Part shown: piece after piece, positions 1 to 29,484 of the stretch | Position numbering within the stretch: position 1 is the first letter of the stretch | Layout of the letters: each line of letters starts with the position of its first letter | Virus record (IMG/VR): IMGVR_UViG_3300023223_001973 | Coordinates: 1 to 64,000 of that record | Length of the DNA stretch: 64,000 bases | Origin: a virus | Reading direction: 5' to 3' (one strand) | The notes under the pieces: generated by a model | Database searches by the model: none | Told to the model about the DNA's origin: nothing | What the model saw: only the letters and a program-made list of their open reading frames with translations | Made by a program: the position numbers and the translations under genes

Positions 1-105
1 GAGTTGAATAGGGAGTCTCCTGCGTATGGTGAAGATGCTTTCTTACAACTGCTTGAGAAGTATGGTATTCACGGTAACGCTGTGATGGGTATGTTGACTG
101 GATAG
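1..105 (+). CDS. 3' end of a hypothetical gene truncated by the window edge
   Basis: Frame 1 is open from base 1 to TAG at 103-105, followed by GGAG and the next start. Confidence 0.5.
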   Translation, partial: ELNRESPAYGEDAFLQLLEKYGIHGNAVMGMLTG

Positions 106-113
106 GAGACGCT

Positions 114-896
114 GTGACCCCTGTGCATGAGCGTTGGAAGAATACAGGCCTTGTTGACAAGTATGTCGTCTCTAAGAAGGACGGCTCACCTGTCGCAGAG
201 GATGCTGAGTACTTCGTTCTCCGACTGGATGAGGCTTGCAAGGACCATAGGCATGTGATTGCGTGCCGTGCTGCGGCCTTCCTGTATGCTTCTATGATCC
301 GACAGCATCTTCCCTTGCTGTCCTCTGATATCATCCAGAAGATCAAGGTTCTGACTAAGGAACATTCAGAGGTTAACTGGTCCTCTATCTCGCCTGCAGA
401 GGTCTACCTTGAAACTGGACGACCCTCCAGTATGACCCATGAGGAATGGCTGATTACCATTGTGAATATCAAGGTTGCTATTGATGCTATCCGACAGGTG
501 CAGATTGATCTTCTGTCTGGCTTTCGTGAGTTTGTTGAGAAGAAGTTGGAGCTGGTCAAGTCTAAGGGCGACCCGCCAAGTGCTCTTGCTGTTGAAGGGT
601 TGCTCAATGACATGATTCAAGAGGTGGATGACACTGGCGCAACCTTAGGCCTCTGCATCTCTGTTCATGGCAAAGCTCCAGAGAAGGACCCTCTGACTGA
701 TATCTTCGAGACTGAGGATAAGCTCATTGCGGCCATAGGGCCTGTTAACCTCATTGGACATCTTCAATCTCATTGTTTGGCAACTGCTGATCATCCCACT
801 GAAGAGACCAAAGCTGAGACTGAGAAGTGGGAACGGACTGCCAAGATGTTGTATGAGGTTCACAACCAGTTGAAGGAGATCTGGGACCCTAGCTGA
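114..896 (+). CDS. Hypothetical phage protein
   Basis: 260-aa ORF with GGAG RBS; its stop TGA is the first three bases of the TGAACCT promoter box. Confidence 0.7.
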   Translation: MTPVHERWKNTGLVDKYVVSKKDGSPVAEDAEYFVLRLDEACKDHRHVIACRAAAFLYASMIRQHLPLLSSDIIQKIKVLTKEHSEVNWSSISPAEVYLETGRPSSMTHEEWLITIVNIKVAIDAIRQVQIDLLSGFREFVEKKLELVKSKGDPPSALAVEGLLNDMIQEVDDTGATLGLCISVHGKAPEKDPLTDIFETEDKLIAAIGPVNLIGHLQSHCLATADHPTEETKAETEKWERTAKMLYEVHNQLKEIWDPS

Positions 897-918
897 ACCT
901 AACACTCTCTTCTACGTA
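894..918 (+). promoter_or_regulatory. Phage ECF-type promoter TGAACCT-N14-CGTA
   Basis: TGAACCT 894-900, CGTA 915-918; same motif and spacing recur at seven other sites. Confidence 0.8.
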
Positions 919-955
919 CTATTGTCTAGTAGGCCTTTAGACAAAGGAGAGAGTC

Positions 956-1210
956 ATGGCATCAGTAAGAACCCAGGTTGCGGAAGCCGTTGCGGAGCGC
1001 ACATCGGACAACGGGAACTTCGAAGAGTACCGTTGCAAGTTCGATTGGGAGATCACGGACCAGCGTCTCCTGGCTCGTTTTATCGCGAAGGTGGAAGCTC
1101 ACGAACTGGAACCAAATCAGGTTCGTTGGTATGTGAAGCGCCTGAACTTCCGTAACGTCTTTATCCCAGACTCCGTTATTGACATGCTCCGCTCCGGCGT
1201 ATATGTCTAG
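956..1210 (+). CDS. Small hypothetical protein upstream of the RAMP gene
   Basis: 84 aa, AAGGAG RBS, first gene after the 894 promoter. Confidence 0.7.
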   Translation: MASVRTQVAEAVAERTSDNGNFEEYRCKFDWEITDQRLLARFIAKVEAHELEPNQVRWYVKRLNFRNVFIPDSVIDMLRSGVYV

Positions 1211-1239
1211 GCAATGCTGCCTAGACAAGGAGTTGGGTC

Positions 1240-1992
1240 ATGACGTATACACAGCGGGACCTCGATAAGCTTATGTCTAAGCGTCGGGGTCGGGCAATCG
1301 TCAAGTGTCGTGCTGTCCGCAAGATTGCGGGTGGCCAGCCTGCCGGTGACAAGGCTCTTGCAGCCTTCGTCAAGTATCACCTCGACCTGGATCCGGAAAG
1401 CAACGAAGGTAAGTCCGCTATCGCTCGGATCAAGAACGAGGAGATTGGGGAGAGGGATACCGGTACTCCCGAAGGCGAGCTGGACAACAAGGAAGTGTAT
1501 CAGGTCAACGTCATTCGACGGAATATGAATGGTCCCTTCCTCCTGGAACACCAGATCAAGGCCATGCTGAAGCAGTCTGCCAGCCGCCTTGGCTACTTTG
1601 TCAAGAAGCGTGGCTCCAAGGGTGACATGGCTGAGCTGGGCACAGTCCGCGCTCATGGAACCAGTCTTCAGTTTGCTCTCCGTCCTTGGGAAATTCACTT
1701 GCGCAAGAACGGGCAAAGTGCTCCCACCTCATACGACCAGATCACCGGTTGTGTGAGCACCACTCAGGGCAAGAAGTCCATCATGCACCATACCGAAGTG
1801 GCGGATGAGGGCTCCGAGTTTGCCTTCGAGTTCGACTGGATTCCTGACAAGCTGGGCAAGAATGCCATGCTGGAGATCATTGCTGCTGCCACGCAGATCG
1901 GCATTGGTTCCTGTCAGAGCTTGGGCTACGGGAAGTTCGAGGTCGTGGAGCTGGATATTGACATGCCTGTTAAGGTTAAGAAGGAGGCATAA
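1240..1992 (+). CDS. Stand-alone Cas7/Csm3-like RAMP-superfamily protein
   Basis: C-terminal G-rich loop IGIGSCQSLGYGKFEV, central 'FLLEHQIKAMLKQSA' helix (cf. P..S.KG.lR), 'TEVADEGSEFAFEF' strand; AAGGAG RBS. No other cas genes in the window. Confidence 0.8.
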   Translation: MTYTQRDLDKLMSKRRGRAIVKCRAVRKIAGGQPAGDKALAAFVKYHLDLDPESNEGKSAIARIKNEEIGERDTGTPEGELDNKEVYQVNVIRRNMNGPFLLEHQIKAMLKQSASRLGYFVKKRGSKGDMAELGTVRAHGTSLQFALRPWEIHLRKNGQSAPTSYDQITGCVSTTQGKKSIMHHTEVADEGSEFAFEFDWIPDKLGKNAMLEIIAAATQIGIGSCQSLGYGKFEVVELDIDMPVKVKKEA

Positions 1993-2630
1993 CTCGACCT
2001 TACGAAGCACAGCGGCCATGCATCATTCCACCGCGCGAGACGAAGCGGCATTGCGTCACAAGACTTGACATATCATGACGAAGAGGCAAAGCAACATGAT
2101 GCATGGCGTAACTAAGCGGCATGACAGGATGTAACTTAACCCAACGTAGAGGCTTAACCAGTCCAAGCTGGTCGGTACTGAACTAAGCGGCTATACAATG
2201 CACGTCTTTACGAAGCGGCGGGACCAGATAAGTCGTGACACTACCCGACGGAGTGGCAGAGCCTTACTCGACATTACTTTACGGAGTGGCAATGCAAGGC
2301 TGAGCAGTGCCGAGCGGCAGGACATAGCTCTACGCTACCACACGCAGAGGCACTACTGAATCATGCCTGACATTGCTTAACAAAGCGGCAGGACGCTACT
2401 CCACACGACGAAGTGGCATGACGCGACTCCACAGGACATGGCGGCTCGACAAGACCGAGCACTATAAGGCTGAACTGGACGAAACAGAGTGGCCAAGCCT
2501 GATGAATCTGTGCGACACAAAGCGAAGTGGCAAGACGGGATGGTACGCCACCTAACTGAACGCAGCGGCAAGTCAAAACAGGACGATACATTGCTGAGAG
2601 GCGAGACAAAACGGGACATTACGCCGCGGC
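1989..2630 (+). repeat. Pentamer-periodic array: 19 units of (NNN-RC)n closed by NNAGH-GGC; putative guide-RNA array
   Basis: Parsed by hand without gaps: 117 pentamers plus 19 GGC trimers = 642 nt; unit lengths 28/33/38/48; the 98 internal pentamers end in AC (60), GC (23), AT (8) or TC (7). Confidence 0.92.
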
Positions 2631-2635
2631 ATAGC

Positions 2636-2660
2636 TGAACCTAAAGACCTCCTCTACGTA
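2636..2660 (+). promoter_or_regulatory. Phage ECF-type promoter
   Basis: TGAACCT 2636-2642, N14, CGTA 2657-2660, directly after the array. Confidence 0.8.
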
Positions 2661-2680
2661 TTGTAAGTGAGGAGATTATT

Positions 2681-3037
2681 ATGAGTAAGGTTGCTGACAA
2701 ACTCCGGGTTATCAAGATCTATAATGATCATGGGATCTCTGAGCCTGGCGGTGTTTACATCTCCCGTAGATCACGAGGTCCCTGGAAACCACCTGCTTGG
2801 ATAGTTCACATTCAAGGTAAGAGCTTCAAGACTGCTGGTCGTGAGGATAATGGTGGTAGGGCCTTTCGTATTGAGGGCCGTGGAGATGTGAAGGACTGTC
2901 TCGCGAGAGCTATTGATTGGTGTCAGCAGAACCTTGGGACGTATTACTTTGTGAAGTCACCTTTCGGTGGCGGAAACATGGTTCAGGAGTCCTTCCTCAA
3001 GAAGGCCATCAAGAAAGCTGATGATGTGCTTGCCTGA
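2681..3037 (+). CDS. Hypothetical protein
   Basis: 118 aa, GAGGAG RBS, downstream of promoter. Confidence 0.7.
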   Translation: MSKVADKLRVIKIYNDHGISEPGGVYISRRSRGPWKPPAWIVHIQGKSFKTAGREDNGGRAFRIEGRGDVKDCLARAIDWCQQNLGTYYFVKSPFGGGNMVQESFLKKAIKKADDVLA

Positions 3038-3168
3038 TGACCTTCCAACTCTGGCCCTTCCTCAGTGGGAACTGGAGATGCTTGAATTTCAGAAGAAGCT
3101 GAAAAAGGAAATGGATGCTTATTTCCGCTCTAAAATGATAGTTCCTGCTAAATACTTTGGAGGCCCTT

Positions 3169-3672
3169 ATGAAAGTAGTCGATCTGTTAGAACTGATCAA
3201 GGACGTGGACCTGGAGGCAGAGGTCCCGAGCGAGATCATCGACAAACTGACCCAGGTACCTGATGGCTCACCGCCTCGCCCTGTCCGTGGTAAGCTTCCC
3301 AACCGTCGCAATGGAATAACCCAGAAGGTATCTGTTGCTCAGCAGACAGTCTATCTCCGATCTGGACTGTATGAAGATGGTTCTCTGGGTGAGATATTCA
3401 TTGACATGTCCAGACAGGGTGCTGGTTATCGTTCCATTATGGGCTGCTTTGCTATCGCGGTAAGTCTTGGTTTGCAGCATGGTGTACCGCTTGAACGCTT
3501 TGTTAATGCTTTTGTATGGACAAGATTCGATCCGCAAGGCCAAGTTGCTGGCCATCCTTCTATAAAACACTGTACGTCAGTGGTGGACTATATCTTTAGA
3601 GACTTGGCTTATCACCATCTTGGTGATGAGGATATGGCTAAGTATGATCCTAAGGAGCACTCTTACCTATAA
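3169..3672 (+). CDS. Stand-alone class II ribonucleotide reductase (NrdJ) C-terminal TSCPD-like domain
   Basis: [14 protein letters not shown]...[14 protein letters not shown]...[15 protein letters not shown]...[11 protein letters not shown]; GGAGG RBS before ATG 3169. Confidence 0.8.
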
Positions 3673-4720: not shown

Positions 4721-5070
4721 GGGGGTGAATTGGATTCGACTGGCTGTATGAGCTATCGTGCTGCGTGTCGTGGTTGGTCGGTTGGCCACGTTAAAAGCCG
4801 TCCAAAAGCTTATCTGCGGAATATACCGCACGTCTGCGCTTGGTCTCCGGACCACGTGCCGTCGCTGCCTGAGCGATGTACCCAAGAAGGCACTTCGTCA
4901 AGGTGTCCCGCTGAAGACGGTTTTAGTTGGTGGGAGGACAGGTGGGGAAAGACCCACTGCCGAACCTGCGTCACGAGGGCCGGGCAATAAACGGAAACAG
5001 TGACTATGCATGTAGACGCCGGTAGTTTGGCAGTTCCAGCACGTGGGTTCGACTCCCACCACCTCCACCA
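4721..5070 (+). ncRNA. ssrA: tmRNA; tag reading frame AEYTARLRLVSGPRAVAA* (4816-4872)
   Basis: 5' GGGGGTGAATTGGATTCGAC; 3' T-arm GTGGGTTCGACTCCCAC then CACCTCC-ACCA; acceptor stem with G3.U Ala determinant; internal ORF ends in AVAA. Confidence 0.95.
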
Positions 5071-5175: not shown

Positions 5176-5250
5176 TGACCTGTAGCTCAATGGTAGAGCG
5201 CCTGGCTGTTAACCAGGAAGTTGGAGGTTCGAGCCCTCCCGGGTCAGCCA
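5176..5250 (+). tRNA. tRNA-Asn (GTT)
   Basis: TGACCTG/CGGGTCA acceptor stem, D-arm AGCTCAATGGTAGAGC, anticodon arm CCTGG-CTGTTAA-CCAGG, GGTTCGAG, encoded CCA. Confidence 0.95.
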
Positions 5251-5260
5251 AAGGAACGAC

Positions 5261-5521
5261 ATGGACACCATGAAGAAGGGGAACATGCAGGACCAGGCTA
5301 TGGGAACCTGGTTTGTGGATTCCACTGGTACTGTCTTTCTGAAGTGTCCCTTGTGTGGTAGGGTTGGTAGTCTTCGATCTCCTGGGGATAAGGAGGGTCA
5401 TGAGATTGACTCTTACGGTGTAGTCTCTCCTTCTTTAATATGTCCTCGTAAGGGTTGTCCATTTCATACTGAGATTCAGCTTGAGGATTGGAAAGATGAA
5501 GCGCACAAGCCGTTGTCCTGA
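5261..5521 (+). CDS. Small putative Zn-binding protein
   Basis: CPLC...H...CPRKGCPFH. Confidence 0.6.
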   Translation: MDTMKKGNMQDQAMGTWFVDSTGTVFLKCPLCGRVGSLRSPGDKEGHEIDSYGVVSPSLICPRKGCPFHTEIQLEDWKDEAHKPLS

Positions 5522-5729: not shown

Positions 5730-6326
5730 GTGGTTACTAGCTCCCTAAGTGAGGTTGGGTTTGCTATAGGGAATGGAGAGACAAGGAATGGCGTCGATCT
5801 CGGACATATCTCTCAGTATGGTGTTATCTACGGCTGTAATGCGCTATATCGCGACTTCTCTCCTGACATCCTAGTCTCTGTTGATCGTCTTATGATTGGC
5901 GAGATCATGGAGTCTGATTACTCGGGCCGCATGATCTATCGATCTCGTGAGGAGAAAGGTTGGTTGCACTCTACCTGGGAAGATAGGTCATATATTGATA
6001 AAGGGTGGTCAGCAGGCCCGACTGCTGTATGGTTGATGTGTAAGCGACATGTGAACATTAGGCGTATATTCCTAGTAGGATTTGATTTGGATAGTACACC
6101 CGGATCAGGTGGGAAAGATCATCAGAACAACATCTACAAAGGAACCGCCAATTATCGTACGGCTGATGATCCTAATGCTCCTTCAAGGAACTGGGAGAAG
6201 CAGCTCTTGCAGGTGTTTAAGGAGTTTGGGCATATCCAGTTTGTAAGGGTTGGTGGGGAGGATCCACCAATACCCTGGCGACAGTTCTCTAACGTGTATC
6301 AAAACGACCTTGATATCTTGCCTTAG
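5730..6326 (+). CDS. GT29/Maf-like (DUF115-type) nucleotide-sugar transferase-fold protein
   Basis: AIGNGETR, IYGCNALYRDFSPDILVSVD, SAGPTA, IFLVGFD motifs. Confidence 0.65.
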   Translation: MVTSSLSEVGFAIGNGETRNGVDLGHISQYGVIYGCNALYRDFSPDILVSVDRLMIGEIMESDYSGRMIYRSREEKGWLHSTWEDRSYIDKGWSAGPTAVWLMCKRHVNIRRIFLVGFDLDSTPGSGGKDHQNNIYKGTANYRTADDPNAPSRNWEKQLLQVFKEFGHIQFVRVGGEDPPIPWRQFSNVYQNDLDILP

Positions 6327-7200: not shown

Positions 7201-8051
7201 GGCCTGACTGCGTGAAGGTAGGCTATGGTGATCCACAGCATGGAATTGCTCTTTCTGTAGTGGTCCTATTTTGTGACTTTGATGATGAACAGACGAGGGC
7301 CTCGGCAACTGCTTGCCTACTGTCTGTTCGCGAGACTGCCCCCGTGGATTGTGAGATCATCTGTGTACTGAATAACGTCTCGACTGAGCTTCTTGCCTTC
7401 GTGGAACATGCTGCTGATCGTGATGGTCGCATTGTATTGATTAATCTTAGTGTAAACTTGGGCGTGGTGGCTAAGAATCTGGGTTATGAGATTGCCCAAG
7501 GTAAGCTCATCTTCTCCATCGATGGTGACGTTCTAGTTAGGGATAGGAAGGCCTTTACTGATTGTGTTACCTTTATGGAGAGCCGTAGACATATTCATAC
7601 AGCTCTGATAGGTCCATGTGGTGGTATCTTGGACAAGGAACGATGGACTGATGAAGACTGGCCTATTGCTAAGTGGGAAGAGGGCTCTAATGCCTTTGGG
7701 TATGATGATCCTATCGACTTTGGTGGTGAGGTTGCTGATCTTCATGGCATGAAGGTAGATGCCATACCCAGCTTGTTCTGGTGCTTTCGCAAGGAGGTCA
7801 TGGAGGAGGTAGGATCTCTGGACTGGAGGTTTGGTCCCTTTGTAGGATCTGACTCTGATTTTTGCTTTCGTGTTAAGGAGGCAGGATACGATATATGCCT
7901 TGTGAGAGTTCCTATTACCCATTATGGAGGTGGTGCGAGTACGCACAAGGCCTTCAAGAAGGACATTGATTTCCTAAGGGGAAGTCATATCAAGCTGCTC
8001 TACGATCTGTGGTATGAGAAGTTTGATGTGATAAGTGAGGGAGGCAAATGA
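7197..8051 (+). CDS. GT2 family glycosyltransferase
   Basis: LSVVVL...EIICVLNNVS...NLGVVAKNLG...FSIDGD (DxD)...DSDFCFRVKEAGY. Confidence 0.85.
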   Translation: MRPDCVKVGYGDPQHGIALSVVVLFCDFDDEQTRASATACLLSVRETAPVDCEIICVLNNVSTELLAFVEHAADRDGRIVLINLSVNLGVVAKNLGYEIAQGKLIFSIDGDVLVRDRKAFTDCVTFMESRRHIHTALIGPCGGILDKERWTDEDWPIAKWEEGSNAFGYDDPIDFGGEVADLHGMKVDAIPSLFWCFRKEVMEEVGSLDWRFGPFVGSDSDFCFRVKEAGYDICLVRVPITHYGGGASTHKAFKKDIDFLRGSHIKLLYDLWYEKFDVISEGGK

Positions 8052-27670: not shown

Positions 27671-28819
27671 ATGCCAGAGGCACCTAAGGTGTTTGATCCA
27701 TCATCGTTCTTCGGCGGACAGGCCGGAGCTGCTCCTCCTGCGACTCCCTCCGCGGCCCCAGTTGCTGCACCGGCACCCATTGCCGCTCCTGTAGCACCCA
27801 TACCGCAGACAGCCCCTGCTCCGGCAGCTAATGTAGCTCAACCGGGGTTTGGGGTCCCTGCGGCTCCTACTCCACCAGCTCCTGCGGTTCCGACTCCTGT
27901 AGCGGCCCCGGTGGCTGCTGTTCCTGCTACCCCAGCACCACCTGTTCCCGCAGCCCCAGTGGTACCTGCTGCCCCTGCTCAGGCAGTACCTGCTGCTGTT
28001 GCACCACCCCCGGTTGCGGCGGTACCTGTCGCTGCTGCCCCAGTTGTCGCCCCTGTTCAAGCTGCCCCAGTTGTCGCCCCTGTTCAAGCTGCCCCAGTTG
28101 TCGCTGCCGTACCCGCGGCTGCTGCTGATGCCCCCTCGTTTGCTAAGACCCATGCTATTACCTTTGGTGACAAGCTCTCCCGTTACCCTGTACCACGATT
28201 CCGGGGGATCAAGGGATTCACCAAGCGTATAGGCATCCTGAACGTGACTAAGTGGTATGCTGTTAAGACCCACTATGAGCAGGGGATTGGCTACTACTTC
28301 TGCTTTGGCACCGTCTGTTGTGAGTCTAACGATCCTTCAGTAAGGTACTTGGCTCCTATGGTGGCCTACGACACTGATAAGGATGGAAACATCGTATCCC
28401 CCAACTTCGAGATCCAGTACATGGCTCTCTCGGATCAGTACTATGACCATCTGCAGTTGATACACCGGAATTATCCTCTGGATGAGATAGATATGCTTGC
28501 CATGTGTGCTGATGAGACGTATCAGAAGATGGCTTACCAACCCGCTGGTGCTGCCTCTTGGAAGCAGAACGCTGAGTGGGGTAAGGCTATCGTGGAGAAG
28601 TACCAAGAGTTGGAGCCTAACATCATGCGTTGTCATGCTACTCGTTTGGGTAGAACCCCTGATGAGTGTGTCAAGGCTCTGGCTGCTCGTCGTAGCCGTG
28701 GTTCCAACCAGCCTACTCAGACGCAGCCTACTCCAACAGCCCAGGCTCCTGGTGTTGCTCAGTTTGATATGAACGCGTTCATGAATCAGCCGGGAGGCGA
28801 TGCAGCTAGGGGTCGGTAA
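27671..28819 (+). CDS. Putative single-stranded DNA-binding protein with long Pro/Ala-rich N-terminus
   Basis: HY...YYFCFGTVCC metal-site-like segment; sits before RuvC/RecA; ~155-aa PA-rich region. Confidence 0.55.
   Translation: MPEAPKVFDPSSFFGGQAGAAPPATPSAAPVAAPAPIAAPVAPIPQTAPAPAANVAQPGFGVPAAPTPPAPAVPTPVAAPVAAVPATPAPPVPAAPVVPAAPAQAVPAAVAPPPVAAVPVAAAPVVAPVQAAPVVAPVQAAPVVAAVPAAAADAPSFAKTHAITFGDKLSRYPVPRFRGIKGFTKRIGILNVTKWYAVKTHYEQGIGYYFCFGTVCCESNDPSVRYLAPMVAYDTDKDGNIVSPNFEIQYMALSDQYYDHLQLIHRNYPLDEIDMLAMCADETYQKMAYQPAGAASWKQNAEWGKAIVEKYQELEPNIMRCHATRLGRTPDECVKALAARRSRGSNQPTQTQPTPTAQAPGVAQFDMNAFMNQPGGDAARGR
28034..28104 (+). repeat. 27-nt coding tandem repeat (AAPVVAPVQ), 2.6 copies
   Basis: GCTGCCCCAGTTGTCGCCCCTGTTCAA twice plus a partial copy. 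Confidence 0.9.
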
Positions 28820-29484
28820 TGACTTCGATTGTCGCCCTCGATGCCTCTTATCGTGGCTGTGGAATAGCTTCCTTTAGGTTTCCTGACTACCATAGCCATC
28901 AGGCTGCTCAAGATTCTGACCTGAAGCCTATCCTCGTTCTTGGTGTTATATCCTGCTCTGAAGATGCAAGTATGAAGGGTTTTCACACCCTTGTTCCCGC
29001 TGTTGGTGAGATCGTGGTTCCTCTTAGAAAACTGTTTCATCGGGTAGGAGGGAATGGCCAGGTAATCATGGAGATGCCCCCACCTAGGGGACGCATGGCC
29101 CCTGCTCTGTGGGCTCTTGATACCGCGATAGCAAGGGCTGCTGATGACTTTGGGCTATCTGTTACCGGGTGCTCTCCTATCTTGGTCAAGTCTGTTCTTG
29201 GGTCAAAGAAGGCTAAGAAGGAAGAGTCCTGTAAGCTGGTGAAGGAGCAGGTTGGCTTTTTTGACGAGACCTATGAGATGATGCAGTTCTCATTGGGTGG
29301 TGAGCTTACTCATCCTACAATGCTTGATGAGATGACCCTCCCCCTTACACTGGATGATAATAATATCGCTGATGCTCTGATCATAGGTCTGACGTATATA
29401 GCTATGTTGGGTAAGTATGGTAGGTATCTTCCGCCACCCATTGCCAACAATAAGAAGGCTTATACCTTCCGTAAGGTGTTCTAA
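28819..29484 (+). CDS. RuvC-like Holliday junction resolvase
   Basis: IVALDAS, VIMEMP, AKKEE, DNNIADALIIG. Confidence 0.75.
   Translation: MTSIVALDASYRGCGIASFRFPDYHSHQAAQDSDLKPILVLGVISCSEDASMKGFHTLVPAVGEIVVPLRKLFHRVGGNGQVIMEMPPPRGRMAPALWALDTAIARAADDFGLSVTGCSPILVKSVLGSKKAKKEESCKLVKEQVGFFDETYEMMQFSLGGELTHPTMLDEMTLPLTLDDNNIADALIIGLTYIAMLGKYGRYLPPPIANNKKAYTFRKVF

Follow-up and report, generated by a model that had tools for sequence, protein, structure and literature searches.

What is encoded by a run of short tandem repeats that follows a lone Cas7-like gene in an uncultured phage, which of its letters are read, and against what would they be aimed? The question is raised by positions 1240–2630 of a 64,000-nucleotide (nt) stretch of viral DNA (the window), which covers positions 1–64,000 of the IMG/VR virus record IMGVR_UViG_3300023223_001973, a record of 99.7 kb. 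An earlier sequence-only reading of this DNA joined the variable triplets of the repeats into contiguous strings, saw promoter and ribosome-binding-site words in them, and proposed a gapped guide code through which a nuclease-free complex represses sigma-70 promoters of the host or of competing elements. We find that the locus is probably a divergent form of VIPR (Viral Interference Programmable Repeat), a class of CRISPR-like, RNA-guided DNA silencing systems first described in 2026 (10.64898/2026.04.26.720920, 10.64898/2026.04.26.720927; what is said of VIPR here follows the available parts of the VIPR papers). It would consist of a lone Vipr-type RAMP gene (1240–1992) and a co-directional 19-unit vrRNA array, read as NNx, with two letters specified and every third target base skipped.

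The array fills positions 1989–2630 of the plus strand with 19 head-to-tail units, each made of five to nine pentamers NNN-(A/G)-(C/T) followed by GGC, and all unit lengths are of the form 5n+3 (28, 33, 38 or 48 nt). Across the 117 pentamers the fourth letter is A in 68, G in 42 and T in 7 (94% purine) and the fifth is C in 100, T in 13 and A in 4 (96% pyrimidine), while letters one to three are variable. A hidden Markov model (HMM) parse places the array start at 1984, one pentamer before 1989 and within the end of the upstream gene, and by pentamer count and this parse the vrRNA-type array spans 1984–2630. Its first pentamers (1984–1992) run across the final codons of the vipr-like gene, stop codon (1990–1992) included; since gene and array share this sequence, they probably form one transcript. 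The rest of the 99.7-kb genome holds nothing comparable. The array matches no Rfam family, ribozymes included, and neither of its strands folds better than shuffled sequences (z −1.5 and −0.9). Scanning both strands of positions 1–3300 revealed no promoter-like sigma-70 site; the only two terminator-like sites in this interval both lie within the vipr-like gene, and their number matches the expectation from shuffles. The triplets were also considered as codons of a peptide, a possibility rejected on the frequent occurrence of TAA, TGA and TAG among them.

The vipr-like gene (1240–1992, plus strand) encodes a 250-amino-acid protein predicted from its AlphaFold 2 (AF2) model, Foldseek and hhalign to be a single-domain Cas7-like RAMP with a glycine-rich loop (G-loop), IGIGSCQSLGYGKFEVV, at its end. 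The AF2 model has a pLDDT of 87, and its best Foldseek matches in the PDB are Csm3, Cmr4 and type VII Cas7 (E 5e-8 to 1e-6). A sequence search of the PDB with the same protein gave no meaningful match, and sequence HMM libraries returned weak matches only, to Cas6_C and Cas7_IIId, on the C-terminal G-loop region. When family profiles were compared with hhalign, the protein family aligned with the Vipr family of SUSP1 over 155 columns with the G-loops in register (probability 87.4%, E 3.7e-6); against the single SUSP1 Vipr sequence the E value was 0.0055. Because tblastn of the 250-amino-acid protein against 50,697 phage genomes found no match, the relationship to SUSP1 Vipr is a distant one. 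It is the profile match with SUSP1 Vipr that leads us to place the locus in the VIPR class as, by the evidence of its sequence, a distant and divergent member.

Published VIPR systems are mostly phage-encoded. The minimal RAMP Vipr, a small Cas7-like protein with a single RRM, a G-loop and a thumb, coats a vrRNA of YNNGG pentamers with one protomer per repeat, sequesters the trinucleotide GGY and presents the dinucleotide NN; the resulting filament binds double-stranded DNA (dsDNA) with every third target base skipped and silences transcription without cutting (10.64898/2026.04.26.720920 and its cryo-electron microscopy companion, 10.64898/2026.04.26.720927). According to the same two papers, the guides are naturally directed against satellites, prophages and other VIPR loci, mostly in coding sequence with the wobble base skipped, and reprogrammed guides are effective at promoter-proximal sites. 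VIPR is reported without self-targeting. Seven types have been published, the VIPR papers admit "a related consensus" besides GGY, and a biology follow-up has since appeared (10.64898/2026.10.15.759431). Non-canonical repeats, NNNGG, YNNNG and NNNNG, are mentioned together with "staggered arrays" lacking a tail in the methods and the legend to fig. S18 of the first paper (10.64898/2026.04.26.720920), and a language-model survey lists "GAC/NN, CAC/NN" clusters and non-canonical arrays about ten repeats long (10.64898/2026.10.21.760802). The window array, compared with these non-canonical VIPR-like arrays by the motifs and legends available, shares a five-letter period, a fixed part of the A-C type and a position beside a Vipr-like fold.

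The pentamers of the window can be set in register with the published repeat. NN + (G/N)-(A/G)-(C/T) would align with NN + G1-G2-Y3, which puts the third triplet letter at the G1 position; this letter is G in 61% of the pentamers of one related locus, L002, and in 57% of those of another, L003. GGC, the delimiter, already has the canonical GGY form, and each unit is bracketed by near-canonical trinucleotides, starting after the GGC of the previous delimiter and ending in xGC. Three G-loop residues of SUSP1 Vipr read the fixed trinucleotide: D177 recognises G1, W178 stacks against G2, and R179 forms part of the Y3 pocket (10.64898/2026.04.26.720927). The hhalign alignment pairs these residues with S, C and Q of the window protein, whose G-loop is GSCQS where that of SUSP1 is GDWRP, and this exchange would fit a relaxed G1 and an A at G2. 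In this register the third triplet letter is probably not read.

The type II system of SUSP1 (Vipr, vap1 and vrRNAs; KT454805) has its vipr gene at 28474–29061 on the minus strand and YNNGG arrays on the same strand, upstream and downstream of the genes. It shares with the window a minimal, phage-borne RAMP of the Cas7 kind whose homology shows in profile comparison, adjacent co-directional tandem pentanucleotides in which fixed and hypervariable letters alternate, the lack of nuclease and adaptation genes, and the lack of self-targeting. The unit of L002 described below fits the same rule, two read letters and one skip, the skip falling on the wobble base. Units of the window have 5–9 repeats, whereas those of SUSP1 have 9–16.

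The same arrangement recurs well beyond the window. We found 51 metagenomic homologues of the 250-amino-acid protein, the relatives lying in IMG/VR contigs, and a single copy among 185,579 GTDB species genomes. Nineteen related loci were examined (L001 and L013 are one contig). At least 11 distinct loci carry an array of the same type adjoining the gene and on the gene strand, at protein identities of 33–59%; in most of the others the contig breaks off no more than a few hundred bases from the gene. The family unit consensus is (NNN-AC) repeated, then NNN-GC and GGC, with AC in 67% and GC in 13% of internal repeats family-wide, and GGC is the delimiter of most units in the related arrays. No unit is common to two loci, and near-duplicates occur only inside single arrays; the units are therefore hypervariable, and the variable letters turn over quickly. 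All-against-all BLASTP of the open reading frames (ORFs) within ~4 kb of the gene in the 19 loci revealed no conserved neighbour besides vipr, a search that remote homologues could escape.

Two further features of the related loci were observed. In L002 (5586–5967 and 6833–7687) and L015 (1855–2705) arrays lie upstream of vipr or flank it on both sides, always on the gene strand, which mirrors the layout of SUSP1 with one vrRNA upstream and three downstream. In the arrays of L006 (1888–1953), L018 (2115–2310), L007 and L008, adjacent units can be near-duplicates or tile one decoded string with shifts of whole triplets, as where CGC GGC GCG GCA CAT GGG stands beside GCG GCA CAT TGG GCG ACT. This suggests that units arise via local duplication or slippage in the pentamer register.

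Evidence on which letters are read comes from two sources. For a codon-phase test, the decoded letters of 174 units were laid on a hypothetical target according to each spacing rule and the period-3 composition was measured. The signal was positive only at a 3-nt (equivalently 6-nt) period, with z of 1.8 under a strict null and 2.8–4.0 with within-unit shuffles, and there was none at periods 4 and 5; calibration on fragments of real genes gave z of 5.6–10, for the true rule only. The result is compatible with NNx or NNN and not with gapped triplets, and the three-letter target period implied by the sequence-only reading fits it as well.

The second source is the unit at 7424–7471 of L002 (IMGVR_UViG_3300047160_010893). 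Taken as NNx over its nine repeats (18 specified bases), it matches exactly in 10 IMG/VR contigs (L022–L031), which span at least six different sequence contexts. All ten matches are antisense and in frame and cover the stop codon and the eight codons before it in ORFs ending in (I/M)AD(D/E)(D/E)VPF; two of these ORFs are Enc34-type single-stranded-DNA-binding proteins (SSBs). In all ten (10/10) the base left unread is the wobble base of a codon, and the third letters of the guide agree with the targets at 1–3 of 9 positions, where chance would give 2.25. The canonical acidic tip of SSB is DDDIPF. The matched motif resembles this SSB-type tip, and the guide looks as if it were aimed at a conserved tail motif of several unrelated phage proteins. 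This is a single unit of a single relative, and we use it chiefly to judge the spacing rule and the coding nature of targets. L027, at 5406–5431 and 6177–6202, carries the SSB-like tail motif at the ends of two ORFs that lie 771 bp apart on the one phage contig, and these two sites match the L002 guide at 17/18 and 18/18 positions; the same pair is seen in L030. Exact IMG/VR scans with two further L002 units as NNx (18 specified bases) gave no match for either, other L002 units had no match at the SSB-tail loci, and the complete L002 genome holds no site for the unit at 7424–7471 within three mismatches.

The units of the window were searched under the same kinds of rule. Exact IMG/VR scans with U15 (2446–2493), the longest unit, returned nothing as a contiguous 18-mer and nothing as NNx over nine repeats; with a 1-nt gap per triplet there was one match, which extended at 4/9 and so is a chance match. 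U8 (2220–2257) as NNx (14 bases) gave at least 117 IMG/VR matches in several unrelated, internally redundant protein groups with no co-matching by other units; these matches are chance and redundant, a 14-base pattern being too short to inform. Within the 99.7-kb genome, no self-targets beyond shuffled controls were detected at skips of 0, 1, 2 and 3 or as NNx, and perfect NNx self-matches numbered 0 against 1.1 in controls. Likewise, 153 units of at least five triplets, compared with 183 kb of collected loci under four skip rules, gave none beyond controls.

Taken together, these observations suggest the following mechanism for the VIPR-type locus. The array would be transcribed on the plus strand together with the gene, as homology suggests, and by analogy with characterised systems Vipr protomers would coat each unit, one per pentamer. 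Triplet letters 1 and 2 would form the programmable dinucleotide, and letter 3 together with the "RC" pair would be the fixed trinucleotide held off the target by the Vipr protomers. The NN pairs would then bind dsDNA with every third target base skipped, giving a target of the form NNxNNx, as expected from homology; coding targets read as NNx are predicted from the one relative, L002. The bound filament may silence transcription without cutting, again by analogy. Its targets are likely, from the published systems, to be genes of competing phages, satellites or prophages and not sigma-70 promoters or ribosome-binding sites. A gapped guide code and repression by a nuclease-free complex, both of which the sequence-only reading had arrived at, agree with the published VIPR mechanism, of which this locus would be a distant instance.

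A number of points weigh against this assignment. The internal trinucleotide of the window is N(G-biased)-A/G-C where that of SUSP1 is G-G-Y, and GGC occurs only as delimiter; the 3′ tail and pseudoknot of SUSP1 are replaced by a bare GGC, so that units follow one another directly; the neighbourhood of the gene in this family has no conserved vap gene; and the protein has 250 amino acids against ~195 in SUSP1. Letter 3 of the window triplets shows almost no bias (A 26, C 10, G 37 and T 26%). The codon-phase signal of the arrays is far below that of real coding fragments, and the NNx rule comes from one unit of a relative that is 33% identical. No target of the window's 19 units was found in its own genome, in the collected loci or, for U15 and U8, in IMG/VR. 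The units are short, with 5–9 repeats and 10–18 read bases, and at such lengths reading the third letter too would be advantageous. Finally, the strand of the array, its unit ends and its expression are themselves inferred.

What, then, of the promoter words? The sequence-only reading has every triplet pair in full with a contiguous target, the dinucleotides looping out, and directs the guides at sigma-70 promoters and ribosome-binding sites belonging to the host or to competitors; we consider this very improbable. Its decoding is accurate: by-eye comparison shows that cutting at GGC and dropping letters 4 and 5 reproduces all 19 strings exactly, TTGACA lies in U12 (2352–2389) and TGTCAA in U3 (2050–2087), TATAAT starts U7 (2192–2219), TGGTATAA ends U4 (2088–2120), ATG starts both U5 (2121–2153) and U14 (2418–2445), and the hexamer windows do number 256. 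The excess of three exact promoter hexamers in 351 decoded nt is nominally unusual within the window, with 0.34 expected when triplets are shuffled across the array (P 0.005), 0.51 when bases are shuffled within units (P 0.016) and 0.93 when triplets are shuffled within units (P 0.053). A three-nucleotide period is compatible with the codon-phase test, and VIPR does repress transcription, with reprogrammed guides working close to promoters. The enrichment is weak, however, the motif set, strand and position of the words were picked post hoc, and the excess is not repeated in the relatives, where the same four words occur once in 155 units of 11 related arrays (2,883 nt) against 1.5–2.0 expected (P of at least the observed count 0.77–0.91). 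AGGAG and GGAGG occur nowhere in the decoded strings of the window. In each promoter box two of the six letters are third triplet letters, and this position corresponds to the sequestered G1 and agrees with the inferred targets no better than chance; the natural targets published for VIPR, like those of L002, are coding sequences. Because the words were chosen post hoc, show no excess in relatives and depend on a letter that is probably unread, they look like chance, and neither promoters and ribosome-binding sites as targets nor contiguous pairing of all three letters is upheld.

Contiguous reading can also be had without the promoters. In a three-of-five code the G1 position would have become a third read letter, with contiguous targets of 15–27 nt in the genes of rival elements; we think this unlikely but credible. 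The nearly unbiased third letter of the window argues for it, as do the Ser that replaces the G1-binding Asp of SUSP1 and the shortness of the units, whose specificity a third read letter would restore; the published structure places that letter across from the target base that is skipped, and the codon-phase test cannot separate NNN from NNx. Against it, the third letters of the L002 guide match their ten targets only at chance level and letter 3 is G-biased in several relatives; the contiguous 18-mer of U15 without an IMG/VR match is weak evidence in the same direction. That the VIPR code has expanded from two to three letters per pentamer in this clade, loss of the G1-binding Asp freeing the G1 letter, is in our view doubtful. 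Guides might instead come from the minus strand, antisense to vipr, as Y-NNN-G with a 5′ GCCGC handle, equal to the YNNNG repeat reported in the methods of the first VIPR paper. The fixed letters would then be G (85%) and Y (94%), nearer to the canonical G2-Y3 than A-C is, but every parsed locus has its array co-oriented with the gene, the window array abuts the stop codon of its gene, and in SUSP1 too arrays and vipr share a strand. Moreover, the G-A-Y of the L002 type would read R-T-C, which is not GGY-like, GGC is a canonical GGY on the plus strand only, promoter-like sites are absent from both strands in 1–3300, and the long ORFs of the window are nearly all on the plus strand; we regard minus-strand guides as improbable. 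The letters read would in any case be the same, because dsDNA can be targeted on either strand. Least probable of all is that the array is no guide array and serves as a protein-binding decoy or scaffold RNA or as a structural DNA repeat. No target was found for the window units and expression of the array is only inferred, as such a role would allow, but in divergent loci the array strictly accompanies a Vipr-homologous RAMP; it has two hypervariable positions flanked by fixed ones and units that turn over between loci, and one unit of L002 follows a conserved gene end codon by codon.

The VIPR-type reading also places the locus relative to other guide systems. With the backbone of class 1 CRISPR-Cas (Cas7, Csm3, Cmr4) it shares the RAMP fold, the G-loop and thumb, the use of one subunit per periodic RNA segment and the regular flipping out of bases; it differs in having no long repeats, acquired spacers, cas1/cas2, Cas5, Cas6 or large subunit, in its period of 5 against 6 and in reading 2 of 5 letters against 5 of 6. 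A CRISPR-Cas array with direct repeats of 20–50 nt and adaptation genes are absent, tandem-repeat and ORF scans giving the pentamer array and the lone RAMP only. TIGR-Tas likewise consists of phage-carried guide arrays of short period, but its period is 18 or 36 nt and its effector has a Nop domain and no RAMP, so that the two are not the same family.

The remaining units follow the same cut, which the HMM parse accompanies for most of them and the word count for U3, U7 and U12. All lie on the plus strand, and each ends in GGC. Five pentamers make up U1 (1989–2016; six counting GAGgc at 1984), U7, U10 (2291–2318), U13 (2390–2417), U14 and U19 (2603–2630), the last unit, which was assigned by pentamer cut. 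U2 (2017–2049), U4, U5, U9 (2258–2290), U11 (2319–2351) and U18 (2570–2602) have six pentamers, U3, U6 (2154–2191), U8, U12, U16 (2494–2531) and U17 (2532–2569) have seven, and U15 has nine. Downstream of U19, the ribosome-binding site and ATG of the next gene lie at 2668–2683.

Around the locus, general library scans gave no informative family match for the window genes neighbouring vipr. The ORF at 114–896 (260 amino acids), upstream of vipr, has a weak N-terminal match to a PHROG sulfatase-modifying factor enzyme (E 2e-7). Other loci do not conserve it beside vipr, so an accessory role is improbable. The ORF at 3157–3672 carries a TSCPD domain (Pfam E 1.2e-8) and resembles the C-terminal part of a class II ribonucleotide reductase, although it stands alone. 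A full-length transfer-messenger RNA (4721–5070; Rfam 108.7 bits) and a tRNA (5176–5247) lie just downstream of the VIPR locus.

The sequence-only reading had reached the core idea of the class described in 2026, a noncontiguous RNA guide code with nuclease-free silencing, and needs correcting in that the first two triplet letters are probably the ones that count and in that targets are to be sought in the genes of rival phages. For the VIPR catalogue the locus would add a compact N-A-C/NN variant without tail, without vap and with very short units, represented by ~50 homologues and at least 11 parsed arrays. Judged from one guide, L002 also points to a natural target class, the codons of the conserved C-terminal tail of SSB type, a class absent from the available VIPR texts. 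If the third letter is read in this clade, three-letter reading would preserve the joining rule of the sequence-only reading without its promoter claim, giving contiguous targets of 15–27 nt. It would then amount to a second, experimentally distinct VIPR code and would enlarge the range of programmable DNA binders that can be designed.

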